Shown in pieces: positions 12,357 through 62,764 of a stretch of 64,000 nucleotides of DNA. Origin of the DNA: Blasia pusilla (taxonomy: Eukaryota). Below the pieces are notes generated by a model. It made no database searches. It was given only the letters and a program-made list of their open reading frames with translations, and had not been told where the DNA came from. The position numbers and the translations under genes are program-made. Position 1 is the stretch's first letter, and each line of letters starts with the position of its first letter. Location: positions 8,804,001 through 8,868,000 of the forward strand of contig CM114271.1 in the NCBI GenBank assembly GCA_050084515.1, given 5' to 3'.

Positions 12357-12385
12357 AGGAAATCAACCTCTAAAGAGGGGTGAGT

Positions 12386-14635
12386 TTTGCAACCCTCATA
12401 ACCAAACAAATGCCAAGCAAAACATTAAAACTTTAGTGGGCTCACGCGAGGATGGTTGCGCTTTGGAGAGGTTTCTTGGAAGAGTCCAAGAGATAAAACG
12501 CGCTATAGAGTTTTTGCGTTTCATGCATTTATGGCCACAAACAAGAAATCTGGACCAAACATGAACCAAGACTTGAGATGAGTTGAGTCTAGGAAGGTTG
12601 GTTGCCAACGAGGCAAGAACCAGATTTGGAACGCGACTAGCGTTTGGGGTTTTGACTGTGTTTTGGACCATAAAATTTAGTCCTAAGATGCATTTGGGAC
12701 AAGTAAGGTGATGTTTGAAAGCTTATGCAAAGATGATTAAAACGCATGAAAGATCTTAAAAAAAAGCTGAAGCAAAGGCTAAGATATTGGCCAAAAAAAA
12801 ATACATTGGGACTTCGGTTTAGGGCCAAAATGAATGGTCCGACTGTCTTTCCCCAAAGTTAGGGGAAGGATGGTGATCCCCAAAAGTACTAGTAAGAGGG
12901 AGTGTCTCCAAGCATTCTTGGAACCCAACCCCCACTTTGGACGCCAAAGGGAGGCTCAAGGGCACGGGATGGACGGGAGTTTGGCGTTGGGACTCGAAAC
13001 CCAAACCTGATCCAAGGGAGTGGATTTTGAAAGCCATACTTAGATTCCAACCCATGACTCATTTTAGTGAGTCTCGATTAAGGACTCATTGGAGGTCCAT
13101 TGGAAAATTGGGAGCGCTAGTCTTGAGAAACTTGCATGTGTTGTAAAGCAAGAAACTAGGAAGGTTGAGCTCGATGAAAGGTGTAGTGCCCACATTTTTG
13201 AAATTTTGATGGAAAGAGCATTTTTTTTACAAAAGTCTTCCTTGGCAAAGACTAAAGGCTCAATACCGGAAGTAAAGAGTCTTACTTTACTGAAATTGTG
13301 TGAAAACCTTGACGGATAGAACTCTGATGAGAGGACATCAGATGTTAGAAGATTAAGGACTCTCTTGGAAGAGTGAGAATTGTGTAAAAATAGGAAAATA
13401 AGATAGAAGGAAGCGCAGGTGCTTTGCACGGAAGAGCGCAGTAAGAACAGTGGTAAAGATTGTCAAGGAAGAGTGTAAAGACTTCTTCTTTGCAACCAAA
13501 GTTCCAAAGGAGTCTTCGTGCAAAGATTGTAAACGAAGACCTAAGAGCGAAGACCAAAGAACAAAGAACGAAGATCAAAGAGTCTTCGCAAAGATAGGAT
13601 CATGAAAATAAGACTCCGAAGACTATAAAGATTGAATCGTTGTGGCGATTTTGAAAGCCAAAAATGGAGTGGCGCAGTAGTTTAAAAAGAAGCAGAAATG
13701 ACTCGCCAGTGCAACCGACCGTCTTAGGAAGATGGAAGGTTGGAGAATTTGAACCAAGGAGGTTAGGATTATCAGTTAGAATTCTAGATTAGAATAGGAA
13801 GATCAATCATGGATTGTAAAAGACTATTTAAAGAGTAAATCAGAAGAAGAAGGGATCATTCCCTTGTGTCTTCAATTCCCGAGTACTATTGGTTAGCATC
13901 AGTTCCTTGTACCTTGAGTTTACCAATAGTCTTGATGGGTTGTGTAAGGAGTTTTGTGGGGATGATCCAAGCTGAAGAGTCTTTTCCTTTATGAACCTTG
14001 TAATACTTTCTAGTTCTTTCCACTCTTTGATGCAATAGAAGAGTCTTCTCTCATTCCTTCTGATATGCGGAGTTCAATGTAAAACCTTATTGGGCTGTAG
14101 TATGGATGAGAGTTGAGTCTTGTGATTTCGAAATTCCAGAAGATAATTAGGAAGAGCGTAGGAAAGTTGTTTGACTGTGAGCCGCCATTCTTGAGGTCTC
14201 TTTGAGGTCTTCGTTGGAGCTTTGTTATTCCAGATTCAAAAGAGTCTTCGTGTGCACTTGAGAAGAGTCTTTTCCAAGAGGGAAGAAACTTTTTATTCTT
14301 TTGTACTTGTAAAGATGGTGTAGTTGTAGTTAGCCAGTAAAGCTAGTGGAGAAGGAGTAATTCTTGTTATTTCTCATAAAACCTCTTTTTACTCAGGAAA
14401 CAGTGATCTCTTGGGAACGAACGTAGTACTTTGCGATAGAAAGAGTACCTTTTTCCTTGAGTTGTACATTACAAGAGGCCGAGTTGAGAAATCATAGAAT
14501 TAGAGCGTTGATTGATCCAAACCCAACTAATTTGAGTGTGTGTTTGGGTGCATATCAGCATTGAGAGTGTGTCCTACTGAATGCACGCTTCCGCAACACT
14601 AAAGATTTACGTTCAAGGAGAGTAGGCACACAACA
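12386..14635 (+). mobile_element. 3' LTR of a chromovirus (family of 40389-57372), preceded by its PPT and split by a solo LTR
   Basis: Reverse complement of the 40389-41392 LTR. PPT AAAGAGGGGTGAG at ~12372-12384. Ends ...GAGAGTAGGCACACAACA. An opposite-orientation LTR tail follows at 14636-14704. Confidence 0.8.
13182..14473. mobile_element. Solo LTR (TGTAGT...ATTACA)
   Basis: TG...CA ends with near-TSD AAAGG (13177-13181) / AGAGG (14474-14478). The host LTR rejoins across it. Confidence 0.85.
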
Positions 14636-39611: not shown

Positions 39612-42600
39612 ACCAATATCGAGTTGTGCCTAGTCCCGCGCTTCTCGTCTAACAATGAACATGCGCGAGCATCGTCTCCCTTAGCCGCGCCTGGCTGTCC
39701 AAACTCCGCGGCCTCCTCCCGCTTCCCCTGCCGTCCCACCTCCACCTCGCTTCTCCGCTCAGGTTCTCCCGCTTTGCGTTCTCTGCTTACTCCCGAGCTT
39801 TGCATGAACTCTACTTCCGCGTTCACGGAATTTACTCCGTGTAACCTATGCTCTTACCACTGTTTACGGCCTCCACAAGTAGGTTAAAATCAAATGCTAC
39901 TAACCGGTGCTCGTGCGATGCACGGTGAAACCGGCCCCGTCACCCTTAACTTAATTGCTACCTCCGGTTGAACTTGTCACGTTTCAGCGCCCTGACTCTA
40001 GTATAGGTTAGAAATGAGACACATCCTTGTTTAGCAATACTAGTGGGCACTTGGGAGAGAGGGACAAATCTATAGTATTAAAAGAGGAGAGGGTCTTGGC
40101 CAGGAGCTCCGCGGCATGACACGTGTCCCTCAAGAGACGCCCACCGCATGACACATGTCTCTCACCACGAAATCACGGCAAGACACATCTCATCTGTAGA
40201 TTCATTTTTCATCGATCCGATCTTGTAGTGCGCCTACTCTCCTTGAACGTTAATCTTGTTGTTGCGGAAACGTGAGTTCAGTAGGTCACGCTCTCAACGT
40301 TGATCTGCATCCAAACACGCACTCTGGTTAGTCGGGTCTTGTATCAATCAGCGGGCTAACTTTCCGAGTTCTCGTCTCGGTCTCTCATTGTCGCGCCCCT
40401 ACTCTCCTTGAACGTCAATCTTTATTGTTGCGGAAGCGTACGTTCAGTAGGATACGATCTCATCGCCGATCTGCACTCAAACACACACTCTCGTTAGTCG
40501 GGTCTGGGCCAACCAGCGTTCCAACCCACCAAGTTCTCAACTCGGCGTCTCATCAAGCTCAACCTTCCTTACTTCCTAGTTTCCAAAACATGGCAAGTCC
40601 TTCAAGACTTGGAACAGACTTCCTGATTAGTCCAGGAACCTAAAACGGCACTTGCGTGCCTAGCGATCCCAACTCTTCAACGGACCTCGTGTGAGTTCCA
40701 AACCGAGACCCAAGTAATTGAGTCGCGGGGTGAAATCCAAGAGGGATGTCTAAAATCGCCTCCATAGACTTGGTTTAGGTTTTCCAACCCAACCCCAAAC
40801 TCTCGATCCGTTCCATGCCCTTGCGCCGCCCCGTGGCGCGCAAAGTGGGGTTCGAGTTCCAAGCACTCTTGGAGACCTTCCCCCTTACTAGTACTTCTGG
40901 GATTCTCGAATAACCCCCCATCTTTGGAAAAGGAGGGTCGGGCCCTTCATTGTGGCCCTCAACCCGACTCTACTTACAGTTGTTTCCAGATTGTTTCCCA
41001 GCTGTTGCTTATGCGTTTGCAAAGATCTTTAGTGCGTTTGAAGTGTCTTTCCATAAGCCTTCTAACGCACCCTTTTTCAATCCAAACGCATCTTGGCGCT
41101 AAAAGTTATGGCCATAAATACAATCGGAAAGTCTCAAACGCTAGTGGCGTCCCAAATCCGGATTCCTTCCTTTGGCAACCCACTTTCTAGACTCAACTCC
41201 TTTCAAGTCTTGTTCCGCGTTTGGTACAGATTTCTCAGTCGCGACCACAACATCTGAAATGCGAAGCCTCAATTGCGTCCCGTCTCTTGTCTCTTCTTTG
41301 AGACCACTCCAACGCGCAAACCATCTTAGCGTGAGCCCGCTAATGTTCCGATGTTCCGCTTTGGCACTCGTTTGGTCATGAGGGTTGCGAAACTCACCCC
41401 TCTTTAGAGGTTGATGCCCTCATCAACGCAAACCTTTGTTATGTCAAGTTTCTTGGGCAGCCTACTCCTTGACATTGAATTGCGTTCTGGTGGCTAACCC
41501 GCAATTTCTCTTAGTCTACAGTTGTCGCTTTGCATCACTTAGAATTATTAGCCTCTCCTCTTTGATAAGCCTGGACTCGTTCCAAAGAACTAACCTATCA
41601 AATAAGCTAACTAAGTGTGCAACCTTAGACTCTTCTGGCTCATTCTTGTAAACATCACACATGTTTACCTAGTCTACAAATCGTACTATTATTGGGTCGC
41701 TCCCATATTCGACTTAGGCGCGTCACTAAGTTTACTTATGTAGCCACAAGTAAGATCACCCCAAGCCCCAAGACAGATTCATCTGCCCCACAAACGCTAG
41801 GGCGAGCCCAAGTGTAATCCAACACAAGATCCTGTTCCGAGTGCTTATCCACATACGAGCTCTCACCTCAAATATTCCTTGTCTATCCTCTTGACTTACA
41901 TCCTAAGCCTATGATGAACGACTCATAGCCATGCACTACCACATACAAATTGCAATCAACTCTGGCATCGAATCTCCAAATCCATGCATTCCTTTATTGC
42001 AACACTAGCATGTTCTAGTTACAACGGTTGTCGTGCGAATCCACATCGTCATACAACATACATCGGTGACATACCATACTCACATACATACATAACATAG
42101 ACGAGAGCATCCACAAACATAAGTGTACCACAATTGAAATCCGTGAAAGACCTACTGTCATAAAACACGTATAGAATCACATACAATCGAGCCAAACCCA
42201 CTCCACGATGGGAGAATCTAGGTCGAAGCTTGCGGGAAACACCATAGCCAAGAGCTCTACTCACTACCAAGGCTAACTCCCAACGCAACAGGCTCAACTC
42301 AAAGAATCGACGTTTTCTTTGGGTGCACTCCATACTATATCCTCCAACCTAAGAGCGGGCCCCTTGGGAAAGTCACCCCCAACTGAGTAACCCCCAACCC
42401 TATGTATGAAACCGCATCTCTACCTAGCCACTACGGTCCTACATAAGGTATGGCCTCTACTAGCACACTATACTCTACGACATAATCCGTATGGTCATGA
42501 CAGCTGTCATGCGAATCCACATCGTCATACAACATACATCGCTGACATACCATACTCACATACATACATAACATAGACGAGAGCATCCACAAGCATAAGT

Positions 42601-42784
42601 GTACCACAACTCGCCCCCCTAACTGGCGGTTAGGTCCCTCTAACTCCCAGGTAGCCCTATACATCTACTACATGCTATACACCTTTGTGGGTGCACGAAT
42701 CAGAAGGTCGGGTGCTAGGTTGCCCCATCGTTAGTCGCACATCTGTAATCCATATCATGCAAAGATCAAGTCATGTACCTCTCC

Positions 42785-45700
42785 TAAATACATCGAGGAC
42801 AAACCCACCTTCCAGTAGGAACAACATCCATACGTGGAGTCAAACACATCATGTGTCAACCCCTAGAACATCGATCACACACCAACATACGGGCTGCTTT
42901 ACCAGCAGACCCATACAACATGCACCTCAAGCTAGCACATATCATGGCTAAGTTTGGGTCAACAGTACCATCCACATTTGGAAGATGACATGATGCACAA
43001 TTACGCACATGGTCCTTCCAAAAAACTCCATCACGACCCTCCAACATGAGAACTCCAGAAGCTAACACCTCGCTCACTCGTAAAATAGTGCGGTCTGCCG
43101 TCACATCCAACGTTGTCGGTGCAATCTGCTGCAATTAGACATAGTCCCCCACATGGAACCTACGAATCGATGGTCGATAACCTCCACCCCGAATGGTTGC
43201 ATACCGCAAGGTATCTCTATGTTGAGCAATGGCAAGATTCTCAAAGGTTGTTGGCATAACTCTCCGAAAGAGCTCTGCCCGCTGAGAACACACCCTCATC
43301 CACATCTCTGGGTCATCAAGGTTCACCACCTCACTAGACTCCCAAAGAATTGATGTTGGCAAGTCTGGATCTCGGCCGTATAACAGAAAATAAGGTGAGA
43401 AGGAAGCCAAGGATGCTTGGCGACTGAACCTATACCCCATGGCTAACCATGGCAATTGAATATCCCTATCTCCAAGATGCCCCTTTTGTAGGCCATACTT
43501 GCGCAATGCCCTCTTCACCGTCTGAACCACACACTCAGCCAAACCATCTGCCTATGGATGATCTCGAGACGTGGTCTGATGATCAATCAATGCCTTGTCA
43601 TACAAGACCTGAAACTCACCCTGAAACTCTCTCCTCTGGTCGGTCAACACTTCATCTGGTGCACCAAAATGACTAAGCACTCTATCAAGAAACGCGTACG
43701 TCGTTCCCTCACTTGCCTTCTCAGGTAATGCCACCAACTCAATCCACTTGGAGAAGTGCTCCACCATCACCTACACATATCGATGATGTCGTACAGTCAA
43801 CGGTAACGGTCCCGCAAAGTCCACACTCCAACAGTAACCCAACCCCATAATAGGCAAGGGGTGTAACTGTGGTGTAGGGGTATTGAATGATGCCCTCACC
43901 CGGTCACAAACCATACAACCTGACACCAACTGCTGCACTTGAGTATGCATGCCACGCCACCAATAATGACCAAGGAGTAAGCTATACGTACACTTTACCC
44001 CAAAATGTCCCAACTCCTCATAGGCATGTTGCACAATGCGCTCTCTCTGAGCCAAATGCGGCACTACTCGTACTCTACCATCCTCCCACACACGGAGAAT
44101 ATGTGTTCCCTCCAATCGATACCTCTTAGCACGTTGAAGAACACGGTCTCGCTCCTTGGCACTCACTATGCCGGCACCCTACTCGTCCAGTAGGGAACTC
44201 CAACACCAACGCATCATCATGAATATCACGCTGATCCGCACGCCATCTCCAACCTTAGGATCTCAAGGTGGCCATCTACCCCTCGACTAGAGTAAGATGT
44301 CATGTGGTCCTCCATACTAGAGTCCATCCCTAACCAACATAAAAAGGGGGATGCATGCCAACCTGGAACCATCTCCTCATCAACCTCGCCATGCCATCTA
44401 GCCCTTGTTGCATCCTCTTGGCTAGTACATGGGTTCCTTCTCAATCCATCAGCATCAAGGTTGGCAACTCCAAGTCTATGTACCACCTGAAAGCCATACT
44501 CCTGTAAGATAAGAGCCCACTGTGCAAGCTTCCCTGTAAGCTTGTCAGACTCTATCAACCATTTGAGCGGCTGATGATCGGTAACAAGGGTAAACTGTGT
44601 GCCAAACAAGTAACACCTAAAGTGTGCCACAGCCCACACTACTGCCAAACACTCCCCCTCGTATGAACTATAGCGCGACTCCGCTGCATTATTCGAACGA
44701 CTTGCATAGGCCACCACAAACTCCATATGCTCATCATCATGTTATGTCAACACCGCTCCAAGTCCCAACCTACTCCAATCAGTGTGTAACTGAAATGGGC
44801 ACCCTTTGATAGGTCTCCAGTGCCACTCTTGATCAGATTTCAGAAATTGGTTCAAAGGCTTTGCCATAGCACTAAATCCCTTCACACACATCCAATAGTA
44901 GTTTGCCAATCCCATGAATGCCCGAACTCTACTCACATCTACCGGACGCGGAATAAGTGCAATATCCTCCACCTTTGCTTGCTGAACTCCCAAACCACCT
45001 GGATAGATCACATGACCCAAATACTCAACATCCTCATTGAAGAACTTACACTTTCTTGGATGCAAACGTAGATCATGAGCTTTCAACGGCTCAAACACCA
45101 TCTGCAAATGTATCTGATGCTCCTCCACCGTGTTACTGAACACCAAGATATCATCAATGTAACACCGAACAAAATCCAACCCCGCTAGGATCCTGTCCAT
45201 CACTCACTGAAACTCGGCAGGTGCATTCTTCAACCCAAAGGGTAAGAATTTCCACCGGTACAAACAATCCTTGCTATGAGAGTTGACATCCCAAAATGCT
45301 GTCTTGGCCTTGTCACTCTCCCGAATCGGCAATTGATGGTATCATGCCCGAAGATCCAAAGTACTGAAAATCTTTGCGTATCCCACCACATCAAAGATCT
45401 CCTCAGGTGTAGGCATGGCATACCTATCGGCCTTGGTTTGCCGATTGATAGGACGGTAATCTCCACATATCCGCCTATCCGTATAGTTGCCATGCATATC
45501 CTTTTTAGCAGGCATGACAATGGCTGATGCATACTCTCCATGGGAGAACTCCACTAATCCAGCCTTCAAAAGGTCCAACGTCCTACTCTGAATCATGTCC
45601 CTCTCCATATCACTATATCGGTAGGGACGACGGAAGATTGGAGTATCACTAGCCAAATCAATCCGTATACCGGGTCCAACCAGAGCACCCAACTCCTTCA

Positions 45701-45840
45701 TGCTAAAGGCAAAACAACTCCTATAAGCACGTAGGAACTGTGTCAAGCATCGTTTCTCACCTCCCGTAAGCTTGGGCCCAAGTAATGGCTCCCAAGTCTC
45801 CTCCATTGGCACACTAGAGGGAGAGGACGATGCCATTGGC
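42785..45840 (-). pseudogene. RT, RNase H, integrase and C-terminal PHD finger of the nested element
   Basis: RICGDYRPIN, CYIDDILV, YEGECLAVVWAV..TDHQPL, HFGVK..CMVC, SVDFAGP..TDQ, then CML.GS..MLVCDRCSRG*HMMCLTP..WVCPRC. Confidence 0.9.
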
Positions 45841-46089
45841 TGCTACGCAACCCCCTCACAAGATGGTACACCCTTAGCTACACCATCATCTGAGCAAATA
45901 ACTCCTCCACCAGCATGAGCAACCAACTCCACATGCCCAGCCATTACATCCCATTTACTCCAAGGATGCAAAATACTACTCTCCTCGCCCCCAGCCGATG
46001 CCTCTACCGTCCCGGTAGCCATCGAGCTCATTACAAGGGGTGGAAGAACCATCGACATAGTCCGAAGTCGACGCTGCTCAGCCATACCA

Positions 46090-47040
46090 AGACTCAAAAT
46101 CCAAGTCAAACAATTCAGGTCCATGGCCTGACCCAACACATGACCTCGTGAAGCCTCATAAATGGAAGAAACCGATGTCACACCAATAGAAAATCCCATC
46201 GCACGCTCTCTCTCATCAGCGTTAGGCTCCACCAACTGTCGCACATGAGAATCCCATACAAGCCCGGGACCACCTTCCCTGTAGGCATGTGACGAGGGAA
46301 AACTCACAAGTGTGGGGAGTGCCATCCTAGGATGGCCCACACGGTTCACCACTGCCATGGGTGACCGATCAATAACCCTCACCACCAGAGAAAGTCGCCC
46401 AGTATCCAAGATACTATCCATTGTAAGGCAAGGTTCCCGTTGCACTGCATCATATGCTCAACGTAGAACCTCCCTAGGCAACAAGTTTGTCCACCACAAG
46501 CATGGGCGATGTGCACACGAGCCAACTCGCGCTGCATCCAACAACACCGCTGGTCCAATCCAAGACCACACCTCATGAACACTCGCCATCATCCGGGACC
46601 GAGTGTCACCCAACAATGGAACATTCTCCAGAATGTAAGCTGGAGCACGTGCCTGATGAACCTGAAGATGTCATAACACCGTAACATCTCCCAAAACAAT
46701 CGAGACCTAGGGTCGTGTAATCCCTCACCACGACCAGCATGTGTATGACCCTGACATGGCCATCTAGCAATCACCAAATCCACAGGACCAACCCTCTCAA
46801 GGTCTTGTGCCCCCAACAATGCAATGTGTGACGGCAAAGCACGCTGGTACCCACGAATAGCCGATGGCGGCAAAAACTCAGGATATCTCCGCATCAACTA
46901 ACCAATATGTCGGGATGAGACTCTCTGGGCCGTCTCATCTTGCTCCACATACACGTATCTCCGCACAGGAATACCAGCCTGCAACACTATAGCCAAAACA
47001 GTGCTAATCCCACCAAAGAGATCTAACACACAAATGGCCT
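46090..47040 (-). pseudogene. DNMT3-like C5-cytosine DNA methyltransferase domain within pol
   Basis: Motif I VLDLFGGI; II RYVYVEQD; IV GPVDLVIARWPCQG; VI YILENVP; VIII DAARVGSCAHRPCLWWTNL; IX-X ERERAMGF...RGHVLGQAM. Has a stop at ~46898 and frameshifts. Confidence 0.92.
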
Positions 47041-47459
47041 CCGGCGGATACTGCCATACAATGGGTGTAGTATCCAAAGGGGATAACCCAACTGGACCAC
47101 AAGTAGGAGTCCGCCGTGGGGCCTCCTCTTCCTCGTGAGGTATAACATCCTCACACCAAGCCTCATGCACTAGGCGATCAGCCTCCTGCCGTAGTGCACC
47201 GCCTGAACTCCAAAGTGGCACATCCAACGATGAGGATGCCATTGCTGCAAAACTAGGGAATTCCTCTACCTCCTCATGCACAGGAGAATCCATAGCAGAA
47301 ACATTACCCTCCAAAAAGTCTCCTATCCAAGTGACTACTCCACTAAAACCAGCCACATATGCTAACACTGTTGGCATATGGAAGACCCTCCTGGTCGAGC
47401 CCCATAAATAAATCTCACAGGAACTTGGCTCATACGTCCATCCTTGGACTACCAACCAG

Positions 47460-49930
47460 GTCTATAAGACGCTGTCTCAATCCAGTAATCCATCTGAAAA
47501 CCCATTGGGTACAATACTGCTCCTCCAACTAGTACATCATACGACTCGGCTGATGTGACCACTGCAGGTACTCCCAATCGGGAGCTATCAATCGCATGAT
47601 CTGGTCTCAACTATACAGAAAACTTCTCCCGTGTCATGAATTGAGACCTATCATTGGCTCCTCCAAGTGATGTTTGAATCTGGAATGGGCAAGGCTCAAG
47701 CTCTGACCTCCGAATACCCAAACCAATACATGCCGCCTTTCCCAACATCAAAGGTTGGGCACCAGAGTCTAACAAGACTATATTTGGTCTATACAATTGT
47801 CATGTAGGACTCACCAATCGGAATATCCCACTCCGGTTGTCCAACATACATACACCATGTGCAAGCCTCTCACAATCAATGGCTGGCCGGGCTGGTGATG
47901 CATCCATCTTCACGGCTGCTGCCTGCCAAGTAGCACTGGTACTCAATGCTACACCTGACATAGAGGGCCGCTCCACCGCAACACCCTCATCCACCTCAGC
48001 ACGTGTAGCAGTAATACCTCCACTTTCACACAGCGTGGCTGCTAGCTGAAATACAGGAGCTAAGTCAACTCCTAAAGCCATTAGTTCCGTGGCTGAAAAA
48101 ATGGGGATCCTAACATTGAAGTTGCCATCCGCAATACTGCACTGGATGCTGCATTCGTGTCTACTACACGCGATGTAGATGCCTCAGTCTCCACTATCGG
48201 CTCAATAGGCTACGTAGGAACCATGGATGGAGTTCTAAGCACCTCCGACAACAAGAATGATTGGGGAAGCCTAGCCTGCCTCCCAGCCTCACCCCTCTAT
48301 GGGTCCAACTCCAAAGTAACACCACGTGGCTCTGACGCTCGAGTGGCTCCTCTCGTAACTGCAGCTGATGCCTCAACCTGTGCTGCACTCACCATATAAG
48401 AGAGATCATCCCCTCCATAAGAGGTGGAAGCCCCTGCTCCCGAACCTGATCTATGCTGGATACCAGCCATAGTAGCCAACTTTTGCTCCAACTGCTCAAT
48501 CCTGGCAGCCATAGCCGACTCTGTCGTAGTGGTAGGGGTAGCCACCGTAGGCTCTCCAACCACTGGTCCACCTCTACCACCCCTACCACCTCTACCACCT
48601 CGGCCTCTCGGAGCTACTCCACCACGTCCGCGGCCTGATCTCAACTCTGGATGAAGATCAAAGCAATGCTCTCAAGGATGGCCTGGTCACCCACAATGAT
48701 CACACTGAGTTGGGGCCGACTGAGGCCCATCCTCCAAAGTCCGTCTCCCATCCTCTTGGGGATAAAACTTCCTAACATGATCACCTCCACATGTCCAACA
48801 TGATTGTCCTTGCTGCGGGGCAACAAATGAAGGAAATGGTCTCTACGCAAGTGTCCCTCTAGGACCTGATTGAGGTCGTGTGTACCCCCCACGACTCCCA
48901 CTACTACTACCACCACCACTACTACGAGACTGTGAGGTGGGTTGCTGAACACGAGAAGTAGTAGTTGTATCCCTATAGAATGCGGATGTCAACACTCTCT
49001 CCTTCACCATGTTAAGCTCAATCTTCTCAGATAGAGCAAACACATGGGTCAATGTGGGTGAATCATCACTCATAAGAGTAGCATCACTTACCCTGCGGCG
49101 CAACTCTCTGTCCAAGATCCCATACCAAAACTGGACTGCCTAAGCCTCAGTCACACCTTGGGTAACTGAAATCAAGTGTCACATACGAATGTATGCCTCA
49201 CGAAGCCTCTCACCAGTCTTTCGCTCAAATTCTTGAAGACTCCTCAACTTCTCTATCTTCACTCCCTAATAGTTCTTCTTTAACCTCTTGAAGAACTGTG
49301 CAACTGGGTTGAACGATGGTAGGGCACTAGTACCTCCACTAGTACCCCCACTGGTACCTCCATGGGTACCTCCACTGGTACCCCCACTCCGGCTTGTACT
49401 CGTACCACTCAACGTCGGGTTGGCTGGCATAGTAGGAGCACTACTACCAATACCACCATGGGTGATAGACACATAGCCTGGAGACCAATATTATCTCCAC
49501 GCCTCAATCTCAGCAACATGGTCCTTCCTAAACTCATGGTAATCATCCATGGGTGGTCCTCCAAGTCTTTGAAACAACCCTTCAAGCCAAGAAGGGTGTA
49601 AACAACGTGGCGTTCCGCAACATCTGCATATCACACCACGTATCAAACTCCTGCATGAAGTCCTCCAACTCAATGGTGCCCACTGCACCCTAGTATCGTC
49701 GTGGGCCCTTCATGGCCCCATATATTCCGTCCATGTCCCAAATCAATGGAGATGCAACACTCGATAACAACGTAGAAGACTCGTTGTTTGGAACACTCTC
49801 GTCCTCCTCTTCATCAACCGTCGGAAGTGGAAAAGGTAGCCGATACCTCAATCCACTCTCTGTAAAACCACCACGGTCCCCAACCATACCACCAGACAGC
49901 TCCGTGATGACCAACGCCGATGCCGCACCA
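47460..49930 (-). pseudogene. gag and aspartic protease of the nested element
   Basis: Zinc knuckle CDHCG*PGHP*EHCFDLHPELR followed by an RGG-rich tract. Protease VLLDSGAQPL. 12-bp repeats encoding GGTS at ~49325-49390. Confidence 0.75.
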
Positions 49931-51853
49931 CCACCAAATTACCACCACTAAGTAACCAAGTGACGTCGATGTCGCTGTACTATTCTAGCTCTACTAGCTA
50001 TGGGTGTAGGCAACCTAACCTGTCATCACCACAAGAAGCCTCCCACGGTCTACTGGTCATCACTCCAGCCTCACTACCGGTAGCACACAGGAATAACACT
50101 ACTCTGGAAATTAGCGTCAACCCTAACAATGGGCGCGCAAGCAAGAAGCAACGATGGAGGGGATCCAAACACAAGAAGTCCAACGACAATCCTCCAATCG
50201 CAAATGGAAATCAAGGTAACACAATTCACCAAACGTGGCGCCCCCTGAATCCACAAAACCCACCACACAAATCTAACGCAATAGCTACTCCGCCGCGGGT
50301 CGATGACGTACTAGTCGAACTCGCAGCACATGAAAAATATCACCTGCATGGAGAGGCTACACCGTACTACGCGCTAGAGGTCCATCAACCAAAAACCTGA
50401 GATGCATAAAGCGCCTAACACCTCTCCGAACAACACCAAATGAGCTACACCAGTGTGTACACTAGCATAGTTAAGAACTCAGCAGTTAAGTGTCTTCCAA
50501 GCAGAATAGTCCAAAGATGGGTGACCAGTTATGCAACACTCAAATCACAAATCTTGAAAAAACTGCCTCATGCCTAAGCTTGCTCCTTGCTCCTTGCTCC
50601 TTACTCCTTACTCCTTACTCCGCCTCTCACGCCCACTCGCCCTGAGCTACCACGAGTTGCCTCAAAGCCTCAAAATGCTCGAGACATTCCCCGTTCGCCC
50701 CGTTCGCCACGCTACGCCATGCTTTGCTATGGAGAGAGGCCCAACCAGGGTGCCCCCAATGGGATAGGCGTCTCCAACAATGAACGAGTCACCAACCAAC
50801 CAGCCCCTCCGATCCGATGTCCTTGAGCTAGTCCGCAAAATTTAGATCAAAAATTACTCCACAAATACTCAACCAAAATTGAATCTGTTTCAACCAGAAT
50901 TCAATTGACCACCATAGCTATCTCTCCACAAAAAATTAGCTACAACCGAGCTGTGTACTCCAAGCTAAAAATAAGACAAACTTGCTGTCCATACACATCC
51001 AGAATCGCAAATACGACATCGCTTCCGCCCAGTTTCATGCACACAGAAATCCGCAACGCTCCACACACTCGAGCATAAAGCTTCACATGAGATCACAATA
51101 CAAGTAGCAACATGAACCTCTCACCCGATCTGGATGAACTTCAACAGAGCTTCCGCACTCCAAGCTCTCCACATCAGAAAACCGTCGAACACGAACCAAA
51201 ATCTTCAATCCTTGATAACTTCCAACTCCCTTGACGAAATCCGGCGATCTTAAGCACGTTGGAAAGCTCTCAGCAAGGTCCTTCTTTTACAACCAACCAC
51301 GCACCAGATTCACACCTCCAACATAGGCCACAAGCCACGAACATCCACGGCTGAGTATACAATCAACTCTAACCAGATCCTATTGATCCACAATCGAAGC
51401 TACCATCGATCTACTTCAGTTCTTTGAGAGAAATCCGTGAAAGAAATATTGTCATAAAACACATATAGAATCACATACAATCGAGCCAAACCCACTCCAC
51501 GATGGGAGAATCTAGGTCGAAGCTTGCGGGAAACACCATAGCCAAAAGCTCTACTCACTACCAAGGCTAACTCCCAACGCAACAGGCTCAACTCAAAGAA
51601 CTGACTGTTCTTTGGGTACACTCCACACTATATCCTCCAACCTAAGAGCGGGCCCTACTGGAAAAGTCACCCCCAACTGAGTAACCCCCAACCCTATGTA
51701 TGAAACTGCATCTCTACCTAGCCACTACGGTCCTACATAAGGTATGGCCTCTACTAGCACACTATACTCTACGACATAATCCGTATGGTCATGACACAGC
51801 CTTTGGCCCAAGATTCCAATGGGTACAAGTCATGTTTCTAGCTTCTCCCCGTA

Positions 51854-54800
51854 CTAACGTATGTGCTTCTCTTGCGTTCGCTTGAAGTCTCGCAACAACT
51901 CTTGCGTGTGTTCCAAATCCGCCTGCGCAATCCAAGTCGCCTCCTTCACATGGTAGCCCTTCCATTTAACCAAGTATTCATACTTGTTGGCCCGACGCCT
52001 CGAACGTAAGATGGTCTCCACCTCAAACTCCGGCTCTTCATTTATGATCACGGAGTGCGGTCTCACCACCTGTCTCCGCTCGAAACTTCCATTATCTTGA
52101 AGATATTTCTTCAACAATGACACATGAAAGATCGGGTGAATTTTGAACTTGTCCAGCAGCCCCAATATATACACATCCTCGAACGGGTTTGCCACAATCA
52201 CATACGGTCCAACATACTTGGCAGACAGCTTCGCAGACAACTCTTTTGGAAGAGTGAGATTCTTCACACTCAACCACACTTGCTCTCCAACTTGGAATCG
52301 TACTTGGCGCCGACTCTTGTTAACATGCTTAACGTACCTCATTTGTTGCAAGACTTCGCCTTGCTCGCTCTTCCCATTCTCGCATTTCTACCAAAAAACC
52401 TTTTGTCATTGCTTGTCGTGTTCGTGCCAATGTAGTACCCTTCGAAAGGGCTAGGTCAAGAGGCCCTTGTGGCTCTCATCCATTCGCCAAGAGAAACGGA
52501 GATTCTCCAATTGCAGAATGCTTGGTCGAGTTGTTGCAGTACTCCGCCATGCTAAGCCACTTAACCCAATCTCGTTGATCAGCACTGACATAATTCCTTA
52601 AGTACTGATTCACGATTGAGTGTACCTTTTCAGTCTGTCCATCCATCTGTGGGTGGAAAGCCGTACTGAAACTCAGCTTGGTCTTAAACCTCCTGAACAA
52701 GTGCTTCCAGAAAGCACTGGTACACTTTGGATCCTGATCTGAAACAATGCTCCTCAGAAAACCGTGAGCACGCCACCAGCTATCCAAAAACAGTTGCGAC
52801 GTCGTATAAGCCGTTGCGGAAGCCACCTTCGGCACGAATCTCGCCAACTTGCTAAACCGATCAACAATCACAAGTATAGCGTTGTATCCCTCAGATAAGA
52901 GAAGACTCGTGATGAAATCCATACTCACACTTTGCAAGGGTCCTTATGGGATCGGCAAGGGATGCAACAAGCCTTGTTTCTTATCATAAGAAACTCTATT
53001 TGCTTGGCAGGTCACACAAGTCTTCATATATTGAGCAACATCCTCTTTCATGTTGGGCCAAAAAAACCGGTTCGACAGAACAGCCATCGTAGATTTCTCT
53101 CCTTTATGTCCTGCTCAGGGTCCTTCGTGACACTCCGCTAACACTTTGGTTCGCATCCTGCCTTGCCCCACATAGATCCTACTCTGCTTGAACCTTAGTA
53201 AACCGTGCCTTAAACTTATGTTGGCCACCTTCTCACCCTGCTTCAACTTCCTCAGGTACTCCCCTGCGTGAGCGTCCTTCATATATCCTTCACGAATGCT
53301 TCTTTCCAGGCCTGTTTCTTTGGGGAACATTGCTCTCAAGACTTGTGTCGTCGATGTCATGTGTTCCTCCTTGCAACTCAATGCATCTGGAATCACATTA
53401 TCTCTACCTGGCTTGTGAATCAACTCAACATCCATCAACGCCAAGGTATCATGCCATCGCATTTGTTTCGGTGTCACTCGATCCTGGGTCTCAAAATACT
53501 TGAGTGATATATTATCGGTGAACACTCGAGTCCTGTGGAGCCCTAAATAATTCCGCCACTTCCTCAAGCAATCGACCACCGCGAACAACTCTTTCTCGTG
53601 AGTGGGCCATCTCCTTTCAGTATTGCTAAGCTTACTGAAAGTCCAAGTTGTGTTGGAAAACTTTGCTGTCCAATCCGTGAAAGGTCTCACAATTCCCAAA
53701 AAGTTTTTCACATAAGTGCGATAGAACTACACCGCACCTATGAACCTCCTCATCCCCTTTACGGTGGATGGGGGTTCCCACTCGAAAATCGCTTTCACCT
53801 TCTCCATGTCTAGACTAACGCCATCTGCACTAACCACGTGACCCAAGAATTTGATCTTGCTCAAACCAAATTCGCTCTTCTCTACATTCGCATACAGCTG
53901 ATTCTCCCTTAGCTTAGACAATACCGCTCTCACATGTCGAACGTGCTCCTCTAAGGACTTTGAATAGATAAGTATGTCATCAATGTAGATGATAACATAC
54001 TCATCCATTTCCTTGTGAAAAATGGATTTCATCAATGTGGTGAACGTCGTAGGCGCGTTACATAGACCGAAAGGCATCACTACAAACTCAAAGGAATCGT
54101 ATCTTGTCCTACACGCATTCTTCTCCACATCTGCCTCGGCAATCCGGATCTGGTAATATCCTGACTTCAAGTCAATCCTACTGAAATATCTCGCACCTGC
54201 CAGCCTACCAAAGAGATCATCTATCCTCGGAAGAGGATAATTGTTCCGAACTGTCACTTTATTCAGCGCACGATAATCGACACACAACCTCATCTTTCCA
54301 TCTTTATTCTTCACAAAAAGAACAGGTGCTCCATAAGGTGACTTGCTAGTCCTAATGTAACCCTTTTCCAAGAGCTCACTTAACTGCCTTTTCAACTCAA
54401 GAAGTTCCTCCTGATTCAACCTATATGGTGCTTTTGAAGGTGGTTGGGAACCGGGTATGATCTCTATCTTATGATCGACGGCTCTATGTGCTGGCAACTG
54501 AGTCGGAAGCTCATTTGTCTAGACATCCTCAAACTCCTTGACCACTTTCTGGTGTGGTTCTGGGATTCCCCCTTGAAGCAGTGTCCTGATCTCTACATAT
54601 TCTGCTTGTAGCCTCCTCCACTTGTCTCATCAAGCAGAGAAACCCATCCTCCAACTCGGTCATGCTTCTCCTTGTAATCGAGTTCACCAACTCCTTTTTC
54701 GCCGGAACCTCACGGACCAACCGCACTAGCCGTTTGCCTTTTAGCAAGACGCTCAACCTCAAGGGTCTATGTCTTAACTCCACCACATATGCATCCAGGA

Positions 54801-56218: not shown

Positions 56219-59200
56219 TTTCAAGCAAACTCACTTAGATCTCCTCCTCGTTTCTTGCGTCCCTCCTCGAGCGTCAGAGTCTAGCCGCTACCTTGAGTTT
56301 TCCCCAAGCGTACGGTTGATCCCACGACCCCAAGTTCTCGCTCACCAAGGATTAGCTCTGATACAACTTGTCGCACCCCTACTCTCCTTGAACATCAATC
56401 TTTATTGTTGAGGAAGTGTACGTTAAGTAGGATACGATCTCATCGCCGATCTGCACCCAAACACACACTCTCGTTAGTCGGGTCTGGGCCAACCAGCGTT
56501 CCAACCCACCGAGTTCTCAACTCGGCGTCTCATCAAGCTCAACCTTCCTTACTTCCTAGTTTCCAAAACATGGCAAGTCCTTCAAGACTTGGAACAGACT
56601 TCCTGATTAGTCCAGGAACCTAAAACGGCACTTGCGTGCCTAGCGATCCCAACTCTTCAACGGACCTCGTGTGAGTTCCAAACCGAGACCCAAGTAATTG
56701 TGTCGCGGGGTGAAATCCAAGAGGGATGTCTAAAATCGCCTCCATAGACTTGGTTTAGGTTTTCCAACCCAACCCCAAACTCTCGATCCGTTCCATGCCC
56801 TTGCGCCGCCCCGTGGCGCGCAAAGTGGGGTTCGAGTTCCAAGCACTCTTGGAGACCTTCCCCCTTACTAGTACTTCTGGGATTCTCGAATAACCCCCCA
56901 TCTTTGGAAAAGGAGGGTCGGGCCCTTCATTGTGGCCCTCAACCCGACTCTACTTACAGTTGTTTCCAGGTTGTTTCTCAGCCGCTGCTTATGCGTTTGC
57001 AAAGATCTTTAGTGCGTTTGAAGTGTCTTTCCATAAGCCTTCTAACGCACCCTTTTTCAATCCAAACGCATCTTGGCGCTAAAAGTTATGGCCATAAATA
57101 CAATCGAAAACTCTCAAACGCTAGTGGCGTCCCAAATCCGGATTCCTTCCTGTGGCAACCCACTTTCTAGACTCAACTCCTTTCAAGTCTTGTTCCGCGT
57201 TTGGTCCAGGTTTCTTAGTCGCGACCACAACATCTGAAATGCGAAGCCTCGATTGTGTCCCGTCTCTTGTCTCTTCTTTGAGACCACTCCAATGCGCAAA
57301 CCATCTTAGCGTGAGCCCGCTAATGTTCCGATGTTCCGCTTTGGCACTCGTTTGGTCATGAGGGTCGCGACACTCATCAAGCTCAACCTTCCTTGTTTTG
57401 CGATCTACAACACGGGTAAGTCTCGCAAGACTTGGGATAGACTTTCTGGTCGGTTCAGGAACCTTAAACGGCGTTTCGCGCCTGGCGGTTCCAATTGTCG
57501 GATGGACATCGAATGAGTCCCTAACCGAGACTCACACGAAGTGAATCTCGGGTTGGAATCCAACTTTGGTGTACAAAGTCAACTCCCTTGGATCAGGTTT
57601 GGGTTTCGAGTTCCAACGCCAAACTCCCATTCCATCCCGTGCCTCTGAGACGCCGTTTGGCGCTCAAAGTGGGGATTCGTGTTCCAAGACATCTTGGAGA
57701 GACTCCTCCCTTACTAGTACTTGTGGGGATCTCCGGGGTCCCCCTACCTTTAGAGGAAGACACCTGGGCCTCTTCAATTGGCCCTCAACCCGATTGCTCT
57801 CACATTCATTTTTGGCCAATATCTCATGCATTTGCTAAGCTCTTTGACGCGTTGGAAGCGTCTTAAGATAAGCTTTCCAACGCGCCCTTATTTGTCTCAA
57901 ACGCATCTTGGGGCTAAACGTTATGGTCTAAAACACAGTCAAATTCCCCAAAGGCTAGTTGTGTTCCAAAACTGGTTCTCACCTCCTTGGCAACCAACCT
58001 TTTAAGACTCAACTCATCTCAAGTCTTGGTTCGCGTTTGGTCTAGGTTTCCTGGTTGCGACCACTTACGCACGAAACGCACAACTCTGTTCCGCGTTTCG
58101 TCTCTTGGAATTTTCCAAGAGACCTTTCTAAACGCCTCTCCAAAGCGCAAACATTGTAGCGTGAGTCGAGTCCACGCTACGATGTTTGCACTTCTGATGT
58201 TCCGTTTGGCGCCTATTTGGTGTTGTTTGGTTATGAGGTTCGCGATAGATATGGGTTGTTTTTGGTATTATACGCATATACGATTTCGTATCAACCTTCC
58301 CCCACTAATCTTAATGAAGACTTAGGATTTGCCATTAAAGATGAGATCTTGGAGTCGATTATGGATAGTTAGGATTTCGTCGCCGCCAAATTTTATTTGA
58401 ATGCAAGGTTCACTTCAGGGTCTCTGCAGGTTTAGTATTTATAGTGTTGGCTGAGTCGCATCCGGAAAGTATTCAATTTGCAAAACTTAGTCGTGTGGAT
58501 TTGCGTGTTAGTATTAGAGTATCAAATTTACACAAGTGTGTAGTGGTGCGCTTCATGCTACTTAGGGGGCACTTCATACTACTTAGTGGTAGAAAACTAT
58601 GAACTTTTGTTTTAGAGGACTATTGTTTGCTATTCTATCTTTTTTCCAACTCGACATTTTCTTGCTATATACGTCCAAAGTGTGAGCATGGTTACACACC
58701 CAATCTGCTCAGTTCTCACCAAGTTTTACATGTATTTGCAGGGACGAACGGATTGGATTTCCACCCAACAGAGTAAGATCTGATGTCTCTGGCCTTTCTT
58801 TGTATTCAACTCGTCCCGCTTTGCTTTAGCTTTCTTGAATATAGAAACCTGCAAAAGAGAAACATAGTTAGTAAATGAAGACTAACAGCTCTCTTTATTA
58901 TACAGAGCCGTGCAGAAGACAGGTGAGACATGATTGTAAGCGAACAACTATGAAATCAGCCCAAGCCAAGGGAAAGAAAGGAACTCTCCCATGTAGCTCA
59001 AAAAACTTCTATGGTGTAAAGCCTGCATATACAACATCTTCAGAAAGACCAACGTGGTCACCGATTTCACAGAACGATTCGATCAGGTTGAAGTCGAGTC
59101 CAAAAGTTGCAAGCAAGGTCGACCAAGAACGGGGATAAGATTAGGTTCCAATAGTGAGCCAGAATTTGGGGAGGCCAAGAGGGATTCTCTTCCCTTCCCA

Positions 59201-59797
59201 CAACCTCATGGCCATCCCTTGACTCTACGAGATAGCGAACAAAAGATGTCTGTCCAGTCTGTTGAGTATGAAGTGAGGGCCAAGATCCAAACATTTTTTG
59301 AATGAGGACCCTAAGCCGAGCAAAAGACTTCACATTATGAGCTCGGAAGAGTAAATTCCAAAGCTTGTCAAAAGCCTTGAAGATATCAAGATTCGAGATG
59401 ACGAACAGGTTTGGGAGGCACCATCTAGAAGTTCAAGTCAGAGTCCGAAAGTTCAAGTAGGAGTCCAAAATTTCCCTCCCAGGCTAGCTATAAAAGAGAA
59501 AGAGATTGATGGAAGTGATTGTTGCCTTCAAAATTACCCTGTAAGAGTGTATAATGTAAGGGTAGAACTATGCTCAATGTATTTTTTTGTGTGATAATTT
59601 CCTTTCTAAACTTGAATACCGTCTCAATCTAACAACCATCCTCATGATCACAAGGATTCCCCCACCAACCGTCTCACATGAGAGCACATTGCTAATATCA
59701 CTCATGTGCCAAGAGCACTCCCAACCCAAAACGAACATTGACGGTTGTGTTCCCACCCTTAGGCTGTGTACTCTCTTGAGCCCTTCCGCCAAACTTG

Positions 59798-59942
<145 letters not shown>

Positions 59943-60479
59943 TGAAGAGCTACAACGACGAAGCCTAATACCAAGCCCCCTAGCATAGCGTCGAGGAGCC
60001 CCCACACACACAACAAAGGCGGGGAGAGCACTTGAGAGGGCCATCACAGTGGCCCCATAGAGGGCCGCAATAGCTGTGAGAACAACCTGAGAGGGCCATC
60101 ACAACGGCGCCAGAGAGGGCCGCAAGAACGGCTAGAGAGTGGCACCTGAGAGGGCTGAAGTGGACCTAAGCACAGTCTAGACAGCCAAGAACAGTGCCAA
60201 AGGATCTGAAAGAGCAGAGCAGATTAGGTCTGCAAAGAGACGAGGCCCAATCTTGCCTACGGGCCATTGAAGGACATTGAGCGCAACATGGCGGAAGAGA
60301 GCGTAGCCACCATTGGTTTTGGGGGAGAGTAGTCACGATTGTCTGCACCACCAGTGCAGCAATGTGGACTCCAAGATAGGTTGACTGTGGCACCACGAGC
60401 TTAGGGAGGATATCGGAAGGCCATGCCACAAAGACCCGCGCCTTCATATGCGGCTCAGCAACAGCTGCCTACGATTACT

Positions 60480-61370
60480 TGTTGGTCATGTGATGGAGCC
60501 CATCATCAGCGTGATTGTGCTCATCAGGGTCATGGACATGTGCCTTAGCATGGAGGAGGATGGTGTTGCACCAGGAGGTTATCAGTGTGACTATTGCCAG
60601 AGGTATGGTCACACACGCGCCAAGTGTTTCAATTTCACCCTGAGTTACGTCTTGACCGAGGGCCAGAGAAGGCACCAGAGCGAGTAGCCAATCCGGGTGG
60701 GCCTAGAGGTCGTGCATCAGGTGATCCCATTGGGGGACGAGGAGTTCGAGTTTCCCGACAGGGTGGTGGAGTTGTCGTGGAGGAGGTAGAGTCCCACCAC
60801 CTAGACGCGTCGAGGGAGATGTCAGGTGTGAGGTTGGGATGGTTTCTCAAATACAACAGCTATAAGAGAAGATTGCCGCTATAGCATTGAGGTAACCCGA
60901 TGCCGGATCCATGGCATCGACATTATATGGAGCAGCCAGATATATTGAGGATCTTGGTTGGATGTACGGGATTGCCCCACATGGAGGCCGCCGCAGTTAT
61001 GATGCATGGAGCAGCCGCAAAGTTCAATCCACATTGGAAGGAACCCAGAAAACATACCAGGCTTCCTTAGTTTTTCACGTTGTCTGAGGCGATGAGGACC
61101 CCATCGATGGGTCCTTATCAGAGTTCTTGGAGAGTTGGTGATGTTATTGGTGTGCAAGCATGAAGGGCGATGGGACAAACGAGTGCGACAACTCCTATTT
61201 TTGATGCTCAGGAAGAGCATATGTCGAGTACGATGTTGGGGGCGGCCACGATGGTGTATCGTGCTCTGCTATTTTTTGCTTCCGATGTTATGACATTGGG
61301 AAGTACGTCCGCTAAGGTGTTCCAGTTGGCCGCTACGCTATGTGCACTAGAGGGAAAACCCCAAGCAAGA
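60480..61370 (+). pseudogene. gag fragment of a third relative of the DNMT/PHD Gypsy family
   Basis: CDYCQRYGHTRAKCFNFHPELRLDRG and VFQLAATLC match 48640-48710 and 48030-48060 (minus). Confidence 0.7.
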
Positions 61371-61448: not shown

Positions 61449-62450
61449 TGTCGCGCCCCTACTCTCCTTGAACGTCAATCTTTAGTGTTGCGGAAGCGTG
61501 CGTTCAGTAGGTCATGAACTCATCGCCGATCTGCACCCAAACACGCACTCTCGTTAGTAGGGTTTGGCCAACCGGCGTTCCAACCCACCGAGTCCTCAAC
61601 TCGTCGTCTCATCAAGCTCAACCTTCCTTAATTCCTAGCTCCCAACACATGGCAAGTCCTTCAAGACTTGGAACAGACTTCCTGGTTAGTCCAAGGATCT
61701 GAAACGGCACTTACACGCCTAGCGATCCCAACTGTTCAACGGTCCTCGTGTGAGTTCCGAACCGAGATCCAAGTAATTGAGTCGCGGCGTGAAATCCAAG
61801 AGGGATGTCTAAAATCGTCTCAATGGACTTGGTGCAGGTTTTCCAACCCAACGCCCAAACTCGCGTTCCGTTCCATGCCCTTGAGCCGCCCCGCGGCGCC
61901 CAAAGTGGGGTTTGGGTTCCAAGCACTCTCGGAGACCTTCCCCCTTACTAGTATTTCTGGAGTTCTCCAATAACCCCTCCCCTTTGGGAAAAGAGGTTCG
62001 GGCCCTTCATTGTGGCCCTCGACCCGACTCCACTTACAGTCGTTTTCGGGTCGTATCTCGGCCGCTGCTTATGCGTTTGCAGCGATCTTTAATGCGTTTG
62101 AACCGGCTCTCCATAAGCTTTCCAACGCCATCTTATTTGCTCCAAACGCATCTTGGCGCTAAAAGTTATGGCCATAAATACAGTCGGAAACTCTCAAACG
62201 CAAGTGGCGTTCCAAGTCCGGATCTTTCCTTTGGCAACCCACTTCCTAGACTCGACTTCTTTCAAGTCTCATTCCGAGTTTGGTCCAGGTTTCCAAGTCG
62301 CGACCATCACATCTGAAACGCGGCTTCTCGCTCGCGTCTCATCTCTTGTCTCCTCTTTGAGACAACTCCAACGCGCAAACCATCTTAGCGTGAGCCCGCT
62401 AATGTTCCGATGTTCCGCTTGGCACTTGCTTGGTCATGAGGGTCGCGACA
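61449..62450. mobile_element. Solo LTR of the chromovirus family
   Basis: TGTCGCG...CGCGACA, 1002 bp, perfect TSD CTAAG. Confidence 0.95.
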
Positions 62451-62764
62451 CTAAGGGCCGCGACAGAGCAAATGCCTGGACCGTAGCGAGCGGAGGGCTT
62501 GAGAGTAGACAGTGTCTCCTAGCGAGTGAAGGTCGGGAGAGTGGAGAAAAGCCTGGCCGCGAGAGAGCCGCAGTTGCGCCGTGAGAGCATGGACAGGAGA
62601 GCAAAGTCTAAGGGCCGAGATACAGCGAACAAAGTCTGGAACGGAGCAAAGCGTGGTTGCAAGTGACGAAAGCCCTGAGAGTCGAGAGCAAAAATCAGAG
62701 GGATCTGGGTGCCCCGACCATCTCATTCTCCGCTCTAAGCGGTGACAAAAAGGTCGTTAGGGCC

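Follow-up and report, generated by a model that had tools for sequence, protein, structure and literature searches.

A decayed, nested retrotransposon that very probably belongs to a bryophyte-type branch of the DNMT3-carrying Ty3/Gypsy elements

We analysed a stretch of 64,000 nucleotides of contig CM114271.1 (positions 8,804,001 to 8,868,000 of the forward strand; hereafter the window, with positions counted from its first letter), in which the pol region of a Ty3/Gypsy-type retrotransposon contains a DNA methyltransferase (DNMT) domain resembling those of the DNMT3 proteins. The element occupies 42029-51796 on the minus strand and sits within the 3' portion of a different Gypsy element. Its identity and anatomy make it very probable that it is a dead copy of a DNMT3-carrying family, from a bryophyte-type branch of the retrotransposons called Gypsy-DNMT3; it is a land-plant-type member of an already described kind. 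Its parts are given below in the direction in which the element reads, where A and B are repeats, ORF stands for open reading frame and RT for reverse transcriptase.

42029-51796, minus strand: the whole element, in the order A1, gag, protease, DNMT, (TAG), RT, RNase H, integrase, PHD, purine run, B1, A2, B2
51430-51796, minus strand: repeat A1, the 5' end, beginning with TGTCATG and 95.65% identical to A2 over 368 nt
48096-49734, minus strand: decayed gag region with two CCHC-like knuckles (CWTCGGDH; CDHCG..H..C in translation)
47380-48114, minus strand: aspartic protease region, with the DSG stretch LLDSGAQ at 47611-47799
46100-47053, minus strand: DNMT3-like C5 cytosine methyltransferase domain, motifs I-X in canonical order
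45837-45845, minus strand: native stop of ORF1 in a readthrough-type context, TAG CAG CCA, the stop codon TAG being 45845-45843
44742-45842, minus strand: RT (PF00078, 52.5 bits, on 44742-45203)
44226-44741, minus strand: RNase H (PF17917, 96.9 bits; PF17919, 50.4 bits)
43135-44178, minus strand: integrase, with H2C2 zinc domain and DDE core (PF17921, 52.7 bits; PF00665, 32.7 bits)
42790-42906, minus strand: PHD finger at the integrase C-terminus (PF00628, 36.7 bits, E=4.4e-9; one internal stop read as X)
42610-42622, minus strand: G-rich, polypurine-tract-like purine run, TTAGGGGGGCGAG, directly upstream of B1
42505-42609, minus strand: repeat B1, 105 nt, 102/105 identical to B2
42136-42502, minus strand: repeat A2, from self-comparison of the window
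42029-42133, minus strand: repeat B2, the 3' end, with CACGACA as the inverted counterpart of the TGTCATG start

The order protease, RT, RNase H, DDE integrase is of the Ty3/Gypsy type, with the methyltransferase inserted between protease and RT, and the Pfam matches to RT, RNase H, DDE integrase and PHD finger agree with an earlier note on this DNA, which had assigned the domain to the pol of a Gypsy-type element. Alignment by tblastn with related proteins (P numbers; L numbers denote metagenome loci) located the decayed parts. The gag region matched residues 1-530 of P0005, an intact-looking Gag-protease-DNMT ORF of Marchantia polymorpha that represents 18 member sequences, at 58-86% identity with 10 stops and one frame change; the protease region matched residues 525-767 of the same protein at 68% identity with 3 stops; and RT and RNase H together (45794-44367) matched P0002 at 71% identity over 491 aligned columns, again with 3 stops. 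Pfam returned no match for the gag or protease pieces of the window copy and matched Asp_protease_2 / gag-asp_proteas at the corresponding place in the intact relatives L024 and P0013. The PHD finger is likewise found in ORF2 of L024, in P0018 and in P0021. Over positions 158-9768 of its 9768, repeats included, the window element has about 79% nucleotide identity to loci L042, L006 and L029.

The earlier note had recognised C5 methyltransferase motifs on the pol strand at 46090-47040, and these are indeed present between protease and RT. In minus-strand translation they lie as follows.

47023-47003, minus strand: motif I, DLFGGIS
46759-46754, minus strand (position of the PC): motif IV, WPCQG
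46628-46620, minus strand: motif VI, ENV
46514-46482, minus strand: motif VIII, AHRPCLWWTNL
46229-46191, minus strand: motif IX, EPNADERERAMGF
46139-46116, minus strand: motif X, VLGQAMDL

The motif order is linear and not rearranged (I, IV, VI, VIII, IX, X), both on the window strand and in an alignment of four family domains. A search with PF00145, which the earlier note had proposed, gave 22.9 bits for the motif IV piece of the window, a marginal score against the cut-off of 22, and 18 bits and no score, respectively, for the two halves of the domain read through their stops. Among relatives the same profile gave 35.6 bits for P0005, 33.0 for P0013, 30.7 for P0018, 32.3 for P0025 and 51.1 for ORF1 of L024. 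The assignment as a methyltransferase is thus strong by virtue of the relatives' scores, the window copy's own profile support being thin.

The earlier note had also read the wording of the motifs as DNMT3-like, and solved structures point the same way. DNMT3A/B/C account for 25 of the 27 distinct PDB chain sequences matched by P0005 (best E=1.7e-8), and they fill the first 29 of 51 PDB matches obtained with a profile of four diverse family domains (E=1.6e-19), with DRM (8e-10), M.HhaI (3e-8) and a tRNA methyltransferase (4e-6) following later. An AlphaFold model built from a four-row alignment had a mean pLDDT of 57.7, with its C-terminal half below 50; Foldseek with this low-confidence model also placed DNMT3A/B/C at the top (TM about 0.4, identity 16-21%), a ranking that lends weak support to the DNMT3 affinity. 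Among solved structures, these comparisons support a domain that is DNMT3-like and closer to DNMT3 than to DNMT1, DRM, DNMT2 or the bacterial enzymes.

The methyltransferase is a feature of the family. A query consisting of the C-terminal half of the methyltransferase and the start of RT matched 55 proteins (best E=5.7e-172), and a profile search gave 85 protein matches. The domain stands at the homologous place in Marchantia polymorpha (many gene models), Calypogeia fissa, Sphagnum fallax, S. troendelagicum and Closterium, with more distant named matches in Haematococcus and Scenedesmus, and relatives are encoded in 285 metagenome stretches, 80 of which were taken as loci. A HMMER scan of a library of 1.84 billion cluster representatives yielded 14,760 matches at E<=1e-3, 2,358 at E<=1e-10 and 480 at E<=1e-30; the best 150 all scored above 260 bits and were all element-borne, and none of the 10 named clusters was from Klebsormidium. 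The protein-search lists contained no canonical DNMT3, DRM or Klebsormidium sequence. Methyltransferase and RT share one open frame in P0013-16, P0020, P0023 and Closterium P0025, and they occur in one protein in the Marchantia gene models P0001, P0002, P0004 and P0012, where, in at least P0001 and P0004, a predicted intron removes the ORF1 stop. In the intact locus L024, an ORF1 of 1369 aa (CCHC, protease and the PF00145 match) is separated by a single TAG from an in-frame ORF2 of 1047 aa (RT, RNase H, integrase and PHD). The earlier note had named absence of the domain from other members, or a domain never in frame with pol, as outcomes that would speak against it; many members carry the domain at the homologous place, and it is in frame with pol, either uninterrupted or, as in L024, with only the TAG between.

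Purifying selection acts on the methyltransferase of intact relatives. The ratio of non-synonymous to synonymous substitution (dN/dS) in the DNMT domain was 0.12 for L024-L025, 0.12-0.14 for the pairs among L056, L063 and L065, and 0.35 for L039-L054, a pair of low divergence. Between the window copy and the open domain of L006 it was 0.20 at a dS of 0.75, so that most of the divergence leading to the window copy accrued under constraint. Over 212 family domains the catalytic Cys of motif IV is conserved in 211, the ENV Glu of motif VI in all 212 and each Arg of RxR in 210; with the residues of motifs IX and X included, conservation ranges from 200 to 212 of the 212. As to the host, the earlier note had spoken of an apparent land-plant genome. 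The liverwort and moss relatives at 56-69% identity, together with a liverwort as the source of the nearest named relative of the enclosing element, make the contig likely to come from a bryophyte-type land plant, an attribution drawn from relatives only.

We examined the junction between methyltransferase and RT by scanning the window and the 80 loci (n=81) for the N-terminal motif of RT and then for the nearest upstream stop. Nineteen rows were returned: a nearer decay stop hid the junction in five, one type-B row (defined below) had no stop, and in all 13 visible junctions a stop was present, TAG in 11 and TAA in two. The codon that follows is CAA in 10 of the 13 and CAG in three, and the third codon is CCC in 10, CCA in the window and TTA in L024 and L025. 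ORF1-type proteins end at the homologous place in P0005, P0006, P0008, P0011, Calypogeia P0057 and P0060-71, and the C-terminal residues of P0008 are those that the window frame encodes before its TAG. Since the stop is conserved at the junction and ORF1 proteins end there, we read the TAG at 45845-45843 as the native end of a Gag-protease-DNMT ORF1 and not as a product of decay. The open-frame members P0013-16, P0020, P0023 and P0025, all of type A, have no stop at this point. Leaky-stop expression of a comparable kind is known from gammaretrovirus gag-pol. Tobamoviruses and other plant viruses use UAG_CAR_YYA as a type I readthrough signal (PMC3542737). Agreement with it is complete in the window, L024 and L025 and extends to five of six positions in the other junctions. 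From this context, we think it somewhat more probable than the contrary that ORF2, comprising RT, RNase H, integrase and PHD, would be made by readthrough of a leaky stop.

The repeats of the element are split instead of forming two equal long terminal repeats (LTRs). The order A, coding region, B, A, B found in the window recurs in five other complete loci (L029, L039, L041, L042 and L048), and several further loci show part of it. A begins with TGTCATG in all six complete copies (TATCATG in two degenerate A2 copies), and in five of the six B ends with CA(T/C)GACA, the B2 end of L041 being degenerate, so the element has inverted TG...CA ends. Target duplications of 4 bp (AAGG, CATA, GGTC and CCAA) flank four of the six, and a G-rich purine run stands directly before B1 in every one. 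Given this position of the purine run, the standard scheme predicts an LTR composed of B + A. The internal B/A junction is near-palindromic, CATGACA-NN-TGTCATG, in the window, L029, L039, L041, L042 and L048; the window and L029 have CAATTG at the A/B junction. The arrangement resembles a permuted circle junction.

Two architectures were found in the family. We scored as type A those members in which the methyltransferase precedes RT, or which are ORF1-type proteins, and as type B those with the order RT, RNase H, methyltransferase, integrase, PHD; 212 near-full domains comprised 47 of type A, 125 of type B and 40 untyped. Type B includes P0018, P0022, P0024, P0027, P0030, P0032-34 and P0036 and the loci L063, L065, L078 and L080. 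On an unrooted FastTree tree of the DNMT domain the A/B label needs one change, and the window domain falls in a starred clade (97-100) with rows from Marchantia and Calypogeia. An unrooted FastTree tree of RT and RNase H likewise needs one change, and there 13 chromoviruses that have no methyltransferase lie on the type-A side. This placement hints that the methyltransferase module may have moved between Gypsy lineages, which we regard as a lead. Two type-B members have features of their own. P0018 has, after the methyltransferase, a G-patch match that is weak and falls below the cut-off (PF12656, 22.4 bits). In L078, stretches 1-3492 and 6557-10048 of one metagenome contig hold a type-B element in tandem, 99.97% identical and with long open frames, which may be a very young copy or one assembled in tandem.

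The window copy itself is a fossil and makes none of the element's proteins. In tblastn alignments with P0005, P0002 and P0021 it has 24 stops and five frame changes from gag to PHD, a stop count that includes one or two stops in overlaps at the frame changes. Inside the methyltransferase there are two stops, TAG at 46900-46898 and TGA at 46460-46458, and between them a frame change near 46680-46670. Judged against the 212 family domains, the copy is also substituted at three near-invariant sites, namely G to V in motif I, G to R before the WPC of motif IV, and the second R to C in motif VIII. The earlier note had called the copy pseudogenised, which holds, except that the TAG at 45845-45843 does not belong to the decay. 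The observed/expected ratio of CpG is 0.60 in the DNMT element and 0.85 in the enclosing element, with TpG+CpA at 1.26, a depletion that fits decay through deamination of methylated cytosines, though it is not proof of it.

Members of the family are transcribed. In three RNA-seq runs labelled with the likely host species, reads fell in all 30 bins of the element's internal region, and first mates numbered 4-245 on + versus 0-17 on -. Assuming the usual stranded libraries, this bias means that the RNA is of the coding (sense) strand of the element. Because most of the RNA reads are only 90-99% alike to the window copy, the transcripts come from other copies of the family. As further observations on public reads, the best DNA run contains 0.53 of the sampled words, and of the words sampled from the methyltransferase-RT stretch four air-metagenome runs (X11-X14) contain 0.21-0.25, which is no evidence of habitat.

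No host genes were recognised in the window, and its remaining features are those of other repeats. The enclosing Gypsy element has LTRs of 1009 nt at 40388-41396 and 56368-57376 that are 97.7% identical, and among named sequences it comes closest to one of the liverwort Riccia sorocarpa (72% over 63% of the query). Its chromodomain-type C-terminus lies at 51854-52387 and its RT at 53727-54518, and a third copy of its LTR (88%) is found at 61449-62452. The A repeats of the nested DNMT element (95.7%) are more diverged than the LTRs of the element that it interrupts (97.7%), the reverse of what simple LTR dating would lead one to expect. Elsewhere there are direct repeats at 10035-10919 and 13617-14473 (81-86% identity, about 3.6 kb apart) and, at 12362-13120, a match of 73-78% to the LTR region of the outer element; these probably represent further nested LTR elements. 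At 59700-59900 a long (GA)n/(CT)n microsatellite reads as RERE.../SLSL... open frames. The earlier note had counted three related fragments in the window, a count that does not hold; we found one other fragment of the DNMT family, given next, and a weak gag-like match at 60228-61343.

10892-11491, plus strand: second fragment of the same family, with integrase C-terminus and PHD and without methyltransferase; 68% identical to P0115 and 56% to P0021 over 201 aa (tblastn)

Several observations weigh against the reading of this locus as a Gypsy-DNMT3 element of bryophyte type with an active, readthrough-organised family behind it. The nearest named copies are liverwort and moss proteins of only 56-69% overall identity. 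The DNMT3 assignment is a ranking among solved structures and not a rooted tree, and kinship with the Klebsormidium nitens element of 2018 (KnitGypsy-Dnmt3) was set by the text and a figure legend of its description (PMC5890265) and not by alignment. The residue before the motif IV Cys is Glu in 104 of the 212 family domains and Pro in 98. Among 63 full-length, single-frame DNMT domains of bryophyte-type metagenome copies, 53 carry stops and 10 are stop-free. The junction reads CAA CCC in 10 of 13 cases and so departs from the full CARYYA consensus; neither the window copy nor L041 has a recognisable target duplication; and in run X22 only 39 of 4077 RNA reads were at least 99% alike to the window copy. 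Finally, according to the main text of PMC5890265, the K. nitens domain gave no methylation in yeast, an outcome regarded there as inconclusive. No Gypsy-DNMT3 is known to methylate DNA.

We weighed four other explanations of the locus. Had a single copy captured a piece of a host DNMT3 gene or mRNA, the rest of the family would be without the domain. The window has one methyltransferase copy, and the fragment at 10892-11491 has none, but that fragment comprises only the integrase end. Dozens of proteins, whose sources include at least four named bryophyte species as well as Closterium, have the domain at this same place, and 285 metagenome stretches contain it too, which tells against such a capture, as do the purifying selection described above and a DNA-contig depth in run X1 that, as a rough measure, is of the same order over the methyltransferase bins as over the RT and gag bins; we find a one-off event hardly credible. 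A host DNMT3 gene around which pieces of retrotransposon had been inserted deserves next to no credence. Bryophytes do possess host DNMT3 genes, as a paper on PpDNMT3b reports (PMC6453930), yet the domain here lies within the A...B boundaries, on the pol strand and intronless, with protease before and RT after it as in the relatives, and Pfam found no PWWP or ADD-type accessory domain in P0005 or in ORF1 of L024. The order A, coding region, B, A, B would also fit an element of the DIRS (tyrosine recombinase) type, because it is the repeat order described for DIRS-like elements in the legends of Fig. 1e and 4c of PMC5890265. This, too, is very improbable: the element encodes a DDE integrase (PF00665, PF17921), Pfam scans of the window pieces, L024, P0013, P0018 and P0025 contained no tyrosine recombinase, and the copies have inverted TG...CA ends, with 4-bp target duplications in four of the six complete ones.

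The fourth explanation concerns function and not identity. The methyltransferase may be retained without methylating DNA, acting on an RNA substrate or serving as a DNA- or chromatin-binding or structural part of a Gag-protease polyprotein. Such a role would accord with the E-C form of motif IV in about half of the members, among whose carriers, against a near-universal P-C, are Closterium P0025 and P0013. It would accord also with the failure of the K. nitens domain in yeast and with the suggestion of RNA methylation that the 2018 authors raised for a DNMT borne by a long interspersed nuclear element (LINE) (PMC5890265). Against it stand catalytic residues kept almost throughout the family, which a purely structural role would not need, and nearest solved relatives that are DNA enzymes; moreover, human DNMT3B failed the same yeast assay, as the main text of that paper states. 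We judge a role other than DNA methylation unlikely.

Returning to the Gypsy-DNMT3 reading, its consequences for expression can be set out as a proposed mechanism. Placed in ORF1 ahead of the UAG, the methyltransferase is predicted to be made in far greater amount than RT and integrase. Readthrough of the leaky UAG would yield ORF2, leaving the enzyme at a Gag-like abundance; it could then be packaged or released with the particle proteins, and might act on the element's newly made DNA or on the insertion site, while the PHD finger on the integrase would read chromatin for targeting. That the enzyme methylates the element's own complementary DNA or its insertion site, a possibility that the earlier note had raised, is a tentative proposal that we consider less likely than not. 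The same caution applies to the wider picture, in which a transcribed land-plant Gypsy-DNMT3 lineage, with relatives in the genetically tractable Marchantia, would make a DNMT at Gag level before a leaky UAG, integrate split-repeat DNA with a DDE enzyme and act on bryophyte genomes as a de novo methyltransferase, the module having passed between Gypsy lineages and the members ranging from chlorophytes to bryophytes; we put it forward as a possibility that is, as a whole, rather less likely to hold than to fail.

Retrotransposons that carry the silencing enzyme of their hosts have been known from dinoflagellates and one charophyte alga, neither of which is easily manipulated. If bryophytes harbour such elements and transcribe them, the role of the enzyme can be tested in plants for which good genetic and methylome tools exist, and the predicted excess of enzyme over RT and integrase constrains models of that role. 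The size of the family (480 clusters and two architectures, from chlorophyte to bryophyte) suggests a widespread feature of green-lineage genomes. What the analysis adds lies at the level of the family: its presence in bryophytes including Marchantia, the placement of the methyltransferase in ORF1 ahead of a conserved stop of leaky type, the combination of split repeats and DDE-type ends, the existence of a second architecture, and the family's size. In the literature covered, with supplements and subscription journals outside that coverage, we found no report of a DNMT-bearing Gypsy element in a land plant.

Several known systems offer comparisons. At the junction, the likeness to the tobamovirus type I leaky stop consists in an in-frame UAG followed by CAR-YY between an upstream structural/protease ORF and a polymerase ORF; the difference is that 10 of the 13 element junctions have C and not A at the sixth position. 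PHD fingers, for their part, are a known accessory domain of green-algal transposons, according to PMC8557442. Canonical DNMT3 proteins (human DNMT3A/B/C; PpDNMT3b, PMC6453930) share the unrearranged motifs I-X and are the best matches of the domain in sequence and fold; in contrast to them, the element's domain stands behind Gag and protease without chromatin-reading N-terminal domains (Pfam, P0005 and L024 ORF1), half of the element family has E-C in motif IV, and identity in fold alignments is 16-21%. DRM enzymes are distant relatives, with tobacco DRM and DRM2 matched by the profile at E of about 1e-9, but query residues 4-135 align with about 225-353 of the DRM chain, as expected of a rearranged order, whereas the element's domain is linear.

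Among retrotransposons, the Gypsy-DNMT3 kind was first described in the charophyte Klebsormidium nitens (de Mendoza et al. 2018, PMC5890265), in a paper that also treats DIRS and LINE elements of Symbiodinium unrelated to it, and later papers write of 'streptophytes (Gypsy-DNMT3)' in citing that work (PMC12344493; bioRxiv 10.64898/2026.05.21.726589). SymbioDIRS-Dnmt3 of Symbiodinium resembles the present family in its retrotransposon-borne DNMT3-type domain, in having two domain orders in one family and in its split repeats, but it differs in its tyrosine recombinase, and its methyltransferase methylated CG in yeast, as the text of PMC5890265 reports. The K. nitens domain produced no DNA methylation in that assay, a result that its authors call inconclusive, human DNMT3B having failed too. 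With KnitGypsy-Dnmt3, as it is presented in that paper's main text and legends, our elements share an unrearranged DNMT3-type domain in a Gypsy polyprotein, the absence of introns and a DIRS-like repeat order, the legend of Fig. 4c describing DIRS-like repeats with Gypsy domains; its Ka/Ks below 0.2 compares with 0.12-0.20 in five of six pairs, and 0.35 in one, here. The ORF1 stop before RT, the second architecture and chlorophyte members do not appear in the abstract, sections 9-11 or legends of PMC5890265, a paper that places the acquisition "in the K. nitens lineage" and leaves Marchantia unmentioned; the nearest copies of the window element, by contrast, come from land plants, namely liverworts and mosses.

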